Origin: Escherichia coli
GTDB taxonomy: Bacteria; Pseudomonadota; Gammaproteobacteria; Enterobacterales; Enterobacteriaceae
Assembly (NCBI RefSeq): GCF_003334355.1
Contig: NZ_QOWP01000114.1
DNA length: 338 nucleotides
Reading direction: 5' to 3' (one strand)
Shown here: positions 1 to 338 of the stretch, in pieces
How positions within the stretch are numbered: the first letter of the stretch is position 1
Layout: the number at the start of each line of letters is the position of its first letter
Made by a program: the position numbers and the translations under genes
The notes under the pieces: model-generated
What the model saw: the letters and a program-made list of their open reading frames with translations, nothing else
The model's database searches: none
What the model was told of the DNA's origin: nothing

Positions 1-338
1 CTCAGCATGTGGCCGGATAACCGTATCGCCCGTGACGCGCACTATCTTTACCGGTATGACCGTCACGGCAGGCTGACAGAGAAAACCGACCTCATCCCGG
101 AAGGGGTTATCCGCACGGATGATGAGCGGACTCACCGGTACCATTACGACAGTCAGCACCGGCTGGTGCACTACACGCGGACACAATATGAAGAGCCGCT
201 GGTCGAAAGTCGCTATCTTTACGACCCGCTGGGCCGCAGGGTGGCAAAACGGGTATGGCGGCGTGAACGGGACCTGACGGGCTGGATGTCGCTGTCACGG
301 AAACCGCAAGTGACCTGGTACGGCTGGGACGGCGACCG
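1..338 (+). CDS. Rhs-family / YD-repeat protein, conserved core region; internal fragment, partial at both ends (frame 1, codons at 1..336)
   Basis: Seen in sequence: frame 1 on the + strand has no stop codon across the window (112 codons). Translation: [112 protein letters not shown]. It contains three YD repeats matching the Rhs consensus (RYxYDxxGRL). The stretch [15 protein letters not shown]...VTWYGWDGD matches, from memory, the C-terminal part of the conserved core of E. coli Rhs proteins. I cannot say which paralog (rhsA/B/C/D or other) this is, so no gene symbol is given. About 61% GC fits the known GC-rich composition of rhs cores. Confidence 0.9.
43..75 (+). repeat. YD repeat unit 1 (protein-level), encodes [11 protein letters not shown]
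   Basis: Frame-1 translation of 43..75 is [11 protein letters not shown], matching the Rhs/YD consensus xYxYDxxGRL. This is a periodic motif within the CDS, not a separate genetic element. Confidence 0.65.
136..165 (+). repeat. YD repeat unit 2 (protein-level), encodes [10 protein letters not shown]
   Basis: Frame-1 translation of 136..165 is [10 protein letters not shown], matching RYxYDxxGRL with His in place of Gly. Confidence 0.65.
211..240 (+). repeat. YD repeat unit 3 (protein-level), encodes [10 protein letters not shown]
   Basis: Frame-1 translation of 211..240 is [10 protein letters not shown], matching RYxYDxxGR(L). Spacing from the previous units is 25-30 codons, consistent with degenerate YD-repeat periodicity. 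Confidence 0.7.

Follow-up and report, generated by a model that had tools for sequence, protein, structure and literature searches.

The question raised by this stretch of Escherichia coli DNA (338 nt; hereafter the window, by which we mean the whole stretch at its full length) is which part of an Rhs element it encodes and how far beyond it the variable toxin tip should lie. An earlier note had placed a 41-residue peptide encoded in its 3′ part toward the C-terminal part of the E. coli Rhs core, upstream of the PxxxxDPxGL autoproteolysis motif and the core/tip junction, with the toxin tip probably only a few hundred codons downstream.

Coding frame and position in the Rhs core

On six-frame translation, frame +1 of the window is without a stop over all 338 bases (112 codons plus 2 bases), and the five remaining frames contain one to nine stops each. 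Against the NCBIfam equivalog model NF041261 (RHS_core), the 112-aa translation scores 244 bits (E = 2.3e-72), spanning positions 935-1046 of the 1261 in the profile. The curated cut-off of this model, 2000 bits, is set for whole proteins and is beyond the reach of a 112-aa fragment; the full-length genes that carry the window score 2644-2788 bits against it, over profile positions 1-1261. Within the window, the model TIGR01643 (YD_repeat_2x) also matches at amino acids 38-61, with E = 5.7e-7 and above its 15.8-bit cut-off. The GC content of the window is 0.607, and that at third codon positions of frame +1 is 0.71, which fits a GC-rich coding frame. The presence of two other open reading frames, one of 63 aa on the minus strand (107-298) and one of 52 aa in frame +2 (119-277), could be taken to mean that the Rhs similarity is spurious or that the real gene lies in another frame or on the other strand. 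However, frame +1 is open from end to end with the profile match given above, and in every genome annotation examined the rhs coding sequence lies on the plus strand here; hence, such a reading has a negligible chance of being correct. Short antisense open reading frames are expected in DNA of 61% GC, and we judged both of these to be chance frames in GC-rich coding DNA.

Alignment with the K-12 RhsA and RhsB proteins and with the core model, the check proposed in the earlier note, puts the window at codons 921-1032 and confirms the profile position given above. In K-12 MG1655 the window corresponds to nt 2761-3098 of the coding sequences of rhsA (b3593, NP_418050.1) and rhsB (b3482, YP_026224.1), with 337 of 338 nt and 112 of 112 aa identical, the single nucleotide difference (window position 255) being synonymous; the amino acids, the frame, the position, and the distance to PxxxxDPxGL are the same. 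RhsC (b0700) has the same core segment at codons 921-1032 (335 of 338 nt and 111 of 112 aa), carrying E64A relative to the window. In RhsD (b0497), which belongs to a more divergent core subfamily, the equivalent segment occupies codons 932-1043 (271 of 338 nt, or ~80%, and 96 of 112 aa). YD repeats are repetitive, so that a short fragment could in principle be misplaced, but nothing favors a position near the N terminus or midway along the core. The window has a unique, near-perfect full-length match at the equivalent codons of each paralogue, the profile places it toward the end of the model, and no second match was found within any of the main rhs genes; we regard such a position as vanishingly improbable. 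Thus, neither an N-terminal or middle placement nor an absence of similarity to the Rhs core, the outcomes that the earlier note had named as contrary to its proposal, was seen on alignment.

We estimate at about 0.97 the probability that the window is an internal coding piece of an Rhs core gene of the rhsA/B/C subfamily (residues 921-1032), which, as predicted from sequence, would include the last canonical YD hairpins of the cocoon wall. It is an ordinary, well-known segment of the conserved E. coli Rhs core, and as such it is already known. The 41-residue peptide is encoded exactly, in frame +1, at positions 214-336 of the window and corresponds to RhsA residues 992-1032, i.e., 80-83% of the way along the 1,247-residue core, which bears out its placement toward the C-terminal part. 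The range of 211-338 that accompanied it additionally takes in the Arg codon before the peptide (211-213) and the first 2 bases of the next Arg codon (337-338). The features of the window are as follows:

1-338, plus strand: internal fragment of an E. coli rhs core open reading frame, in frame +1 (K-12 RhsA/RhsB/RhsC codons 921-1032; RHS_core profile 935-1046 of 1261)
43-75, plus strand: YD repeat of 11 residues, the strict motif of which, YRYDRHGRL, starts at RhsA 937 (motif scan; weak Pfam RHS_repeat match at RhsA 936-950)
139-165, plus strand: YD repeat YHYDSQHRL, RhsA 967-975 (motif scan; TIGR01643 match at window amino acids 38-61; Pfam RHS_repeat match at RhsA 939-981)
214-240, plus strand: YD repeat YLYDPLGRR, RhsA 992-1000, with which the strict motifs of the core end and the 41-residue peptide begins (motif scan)
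241-312, plus strand: 24-residue linker, RhsA 1001-1024, longer than in Tse5, with a gapped alignment (alignment to 8cp6_B)
313-338, plus strand: TWYGWDGD(R), a degenerate YD-like unit at RhsA 1025-1033, truncated where the window stops (aligns with FGWDGDR of Tse5)

Distance to the core/tip junction

A sole PxxxxDPxGL motif is present in each of the K-12 proteins, at residues 1238-1247 in RhsA (PVTNTDPLGL), RhsB (PISDIDPLGL), and RhsC (PISNIDPLGL) and at 1249-1258 in RhsD. The window ends at residue 1032 of RhsA and lies, as had been proposed, upstream of both the motif and the junction; from its end, it is 205 residues to the start of the motif and 215 residues (643 nt) to the last core residue, where the junction stands. 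This 215-residue spacing is identical in RhsA, RhsB, RhsC, and RhsD, and so the expectation of a toxin tip only a few hundred codons downstream holds for all four paralogues. The spacing was then followed across the complete E. coli genomes with a 981-nt query, running from the first base of the window to the last codon of DPLGL, with a match counted as collinear if a single piece covered at least 80% of the query. In matches sampled from across the ranking, the subject span equals that of the query apart from one 9-nt deletion. The distance from the window to the junction is effectively constant, because the 981-nt stretch is found as one collinear piece in 3,875 genomes, essentially all of the 3,881 that carry the window; the caution of the earlier note that the exact distance could not be determined can be dropped.

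The core/tip junction after L1247 is real, as is evident from a collapse in identity and a drop in GC content. When all four paralogues are aligned, the proportion of columns with identity across RhsA, RhsB, and RhsC is 0.88-1.0 up to residue 1238, 0.24 in 1239-1262, and ~0 thereafter. Likewise, the GC content is 0.57-0.68 (about 0.61) along the core of rhsA but drops to 0.34-0.44 (about 0.36) in its tip and in yibA, the next gene downstream (L004:1184-6180). The RHS_core model covers residues 1-1247 in RhsA, RhsB, and RhsC, and TIGR03696 (Rhs_assc_core) covers 1170-1247. A Pfam scan limited to RhsA residues 701-1377 recovered the last RHS_repeat (PF05593) matches at ~936-981, PF03527 at 1143-1179, and Ntox34, which constitutes the tip, at 1298-1372; the variable tips of K-12 RhsA, RhsB, RhsC, and RhsD are 130-168 residues long. 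The TIGR03696 domain and PxxxxDPxGL lie outside the window, yet they are present in every examined full-length gene that carries it. The window itself holds no catalytic, motif, or variable residues, and D1221, D1243, and L1247, the residues that correspond to the autoprotease dyad and cleavage site (see below), are found 189-215 residues downstream of it.

Copies among E. coli genomes and the locus of origin

A megablast search against 5,426 complete E. coli genomes recovered the window at 14,268 places in 3,882 of them; 2,731 records have at least 99% identity to it, and many are 100% identical over its full length. The features beneath the matches listed are annotated as rhs element protein RhsB/RhsC, RHS element core protein, and polymorphic toxin type 34 domain-containing protein. 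The exact 338 nt occur, in different strains, beside ybfA (the rhsC locus; L001:6001-6338), nikR (the rhsB locus; L002:6001-6338), and yibF (the rhsA locus; L003:6001-6338), and a ~98% copy is found in a ybfO-type orphan. Assignment of the window to one rhs locus was attempted and rejected: with identical copies at three loci, no single one can be named as its origin. The occurrence of an identical window at three chromosomal loci across strains is consistent with homogenization among the paralogous cores.

Two further observations concern the matches themselves. The 981-nt query used above has 20,045 places, compared to the 14,268 of the window alone; the ~5,800 extra places hold only the part of the core 3′ of the window and presumably represent shorter orphans, of which yibJ and ylbH would be examples. 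Further, in CP025849, CP025851, and CP025859 (RefSeq assemblies from one study), the rhs genes bearing the window (L001:3241-7435, L002:3228-7476, and L003:4618-7374) are flagged as pseudogenes with frameshifts or N-terminal truncations, which could reflect either real decay or assembly errors in long repeated genes. Codons were counted on K-12 MG1655 because the first three 100% matches inspected carry these flagged genes.

The orphan copies raise the possibility that the window comes not from a main rhs gene but from a promoterless ybfO-type fragment downstream of one, in which case it would be part of a silent recombination cassette rather than of an expressed shell. Indeed, the entire window is contained in the K-12 ybfO pseudogene (L006:5715-6052, 97.9%) and in its counterpart in strain 600468 (L001:7873-8210, 97.6%), and the homology between orphan and core starts merely 66 nt upstream of the first base of the window, at nt 2695 of the rhsC coding sequence. 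However, all of the 100%-identical places inspected are in main rhs genes, and an orphan origin is the less likely one because 7-8 mismatches separate the window from the two orphans examined, as against 0-3 for the main genes. We consider it an unlikely origin, although one with some chance of being true. It would, moreover, leave the placement of the junction unchanged, the orphan homology being collinear with the core to nt 3738 of the coding sequence. The K-12 ybfO orphan is an N-terminally truncated pseudogene that carries E64A, as does RhsC, and follows the rhsC core collinearly as far as that point; the homologous stretches are L006:5649-6692 in K-12 and L001:7807-8850 in strain 600468, corresponding to nt 2695-3738 of rhsC. 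At its junction, ybfO has PVQYIDSMGL, with DS in place of DP, and in this departs from PxxxxDPxGL.

The distal shell and its putative structural role

Taking the window as a piece of a main rhs core gene, we asked how far it lies from the distal limit of the YD-repeat shell, near which the earlier note had put it. A relaxed YxYDxxGxL scan finds 11 strict motifs in RhsA, of which the last three, starting at 937, 967, and 992, are all within the window, and none is found in RhsA after 992. The last of these, YLYDPLGRR, has as its aligned counterparts YRYDALSRR in Tse5 and YKYDPFGRR in the Salmonella bongori Rhs protein. In that it takes in the final canonical YD motifs, the window is indeed near the distal end of the shell; the shell polypeptide itself runs on past it, and ~137 residues, including a non-YD insert, still separate it from the Rhs-associated core domain (1170-1247), i.e., the protease domain. 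The insert is a ~70-residue segment without a YD signature at RhsA ~1064-1135 (L004:4373-4588), between the last repeats and the Rhs-associated core domain. Over this segment, the fraction of columns identical between RhsD and RhsA/B/C is 0.60-0.72, versus 0.92-0.96 in its flanks.

Solved Rhs proteins offer a framework for what these repeats might do. In the structure of RhsA from Pseudomonas protegens, the Rhs repeats form a closed β-spiral cocoon around the toxin, and the conserved C-terminal region, in an inward spiral, closes off one end and constitutes an aspartyl autoprotease, with cleavage after W1350 in PxxxxDPxG(W/L/F) (PMC8765631). Both cleavage and killing are lost upon a D1324N or D1346N substitution (PMC8765631). 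The PxxxxDPxGL motif is needed for autoproteolysis and marks the end of the barrel versus the variable Rhs-CT (PMC8765631; for the demarcation of the Rhs-CT, also PMC3150448). E. coli RhsA 1190-1246 aligns without gaps to residues 1233-1289 of the 7q97 chain, and its D1221, D1243, and L1247 stand opposite chain residues 1264, 1286, and 1290, which, with a constant offset of 60, are D1324, D1346, and W1350.

The alignment extends to the other solved Rhs cocoons of type VI secretion systems (T6SS). The window aligns at 862-953 of the 1121 residues of the cage chain of Pseudomonas aeruginosa Tse5 (8cp6_B), which ends at DPTGL; this alignment runs on as far as 984 and, after a short unaligned stretch, picks up again at 1012-1121, the C-terminal conserved region. 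A collinear alignment, as with Tse5, was obtained for the S. bongori Rhs protein (8qjb/c/d, of which 8qjd was aligned) and for P. protegens RhsA (7q97). The identity between the window and these solved cocoons is low, with E values of 1e-7 to 5e-3; the C-terminal protease region, both catalytic Asp residues, and the DPxG(L/W) site align ungapped. The C components of Tc toxins (TccC3 and YenC2) and the teneurins also have in common with RhsA a YD-repeat cocoon and a conserved C-terminal region, which matches RhsA 1186-1247; here the similarity is confined to the C-terminal protease/plug region, short of the window, and the delivery systems differ. Teneurins do not cleave (PMC8765631).

By comparison with these proteins, we propose that the repeats in the window would be purely structural, forming late YD β-hairpins in the cocoon wall that probably belong to the final turn of the hollow β-spiral. 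This final-turn placement draws on the low-identity alignment to the solved Rhs homologues and on the homology with the shells of Rhs, Tc, and teneurin proteins. Past the window, the chain continues downstream into the Rhs-associated core or aspartyl autoprotease domain (1170-1247), with D1221 and D1243 as the likely equivalents of the catalytic dyad. Cleavage would then take place after L1247, at the core/tip junction, as the homologous structures and the published mutagenesis suggest for autoproteolysis. Beyond L1247, there follow the 130-168-residue polymorphic toxin tip and then its immunity gene.

E. coli RhsA differs from Tse5 in its longer linker (1004-1024) and in the longer non-YD segment at ~1064-1135, the counterpart of which is residues 985-1011 in Tse5 and is also much shorter in the S. 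bongori Rhs protein. Around the rhsA, rhsB, rhsC, and rhsD loci examined, the annotation shows neither vgrG nor any other T6SS gene over about 3-6 kb, and an NCBIfam scan of the four K-12 Rhs proteins found no PAAR model. One speculation, to which we give very little credence, is that the extended basic 20-residue linker and the ~70-residue non-YD segment do something specific to this clade instead of simply making up shell wall; a related option, viewed with the same reserve, is that the start of the ybfO-type homology is a preferred recombination boundary. If true, the clade-specific role might lie in toxin release, as an element for docking or gating, or it might concern an export route in strains without T6SS linkage at their rhs loci.

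For the Rhs family in E. coli, the practical meaning of these results is that a fragment of 338 bases is enough for codon-exact placement within the Rhs core. The 643-nt distance to the tip is useful only for extending a read or contig so as to identify the toxin/immunity pair attached to the core.
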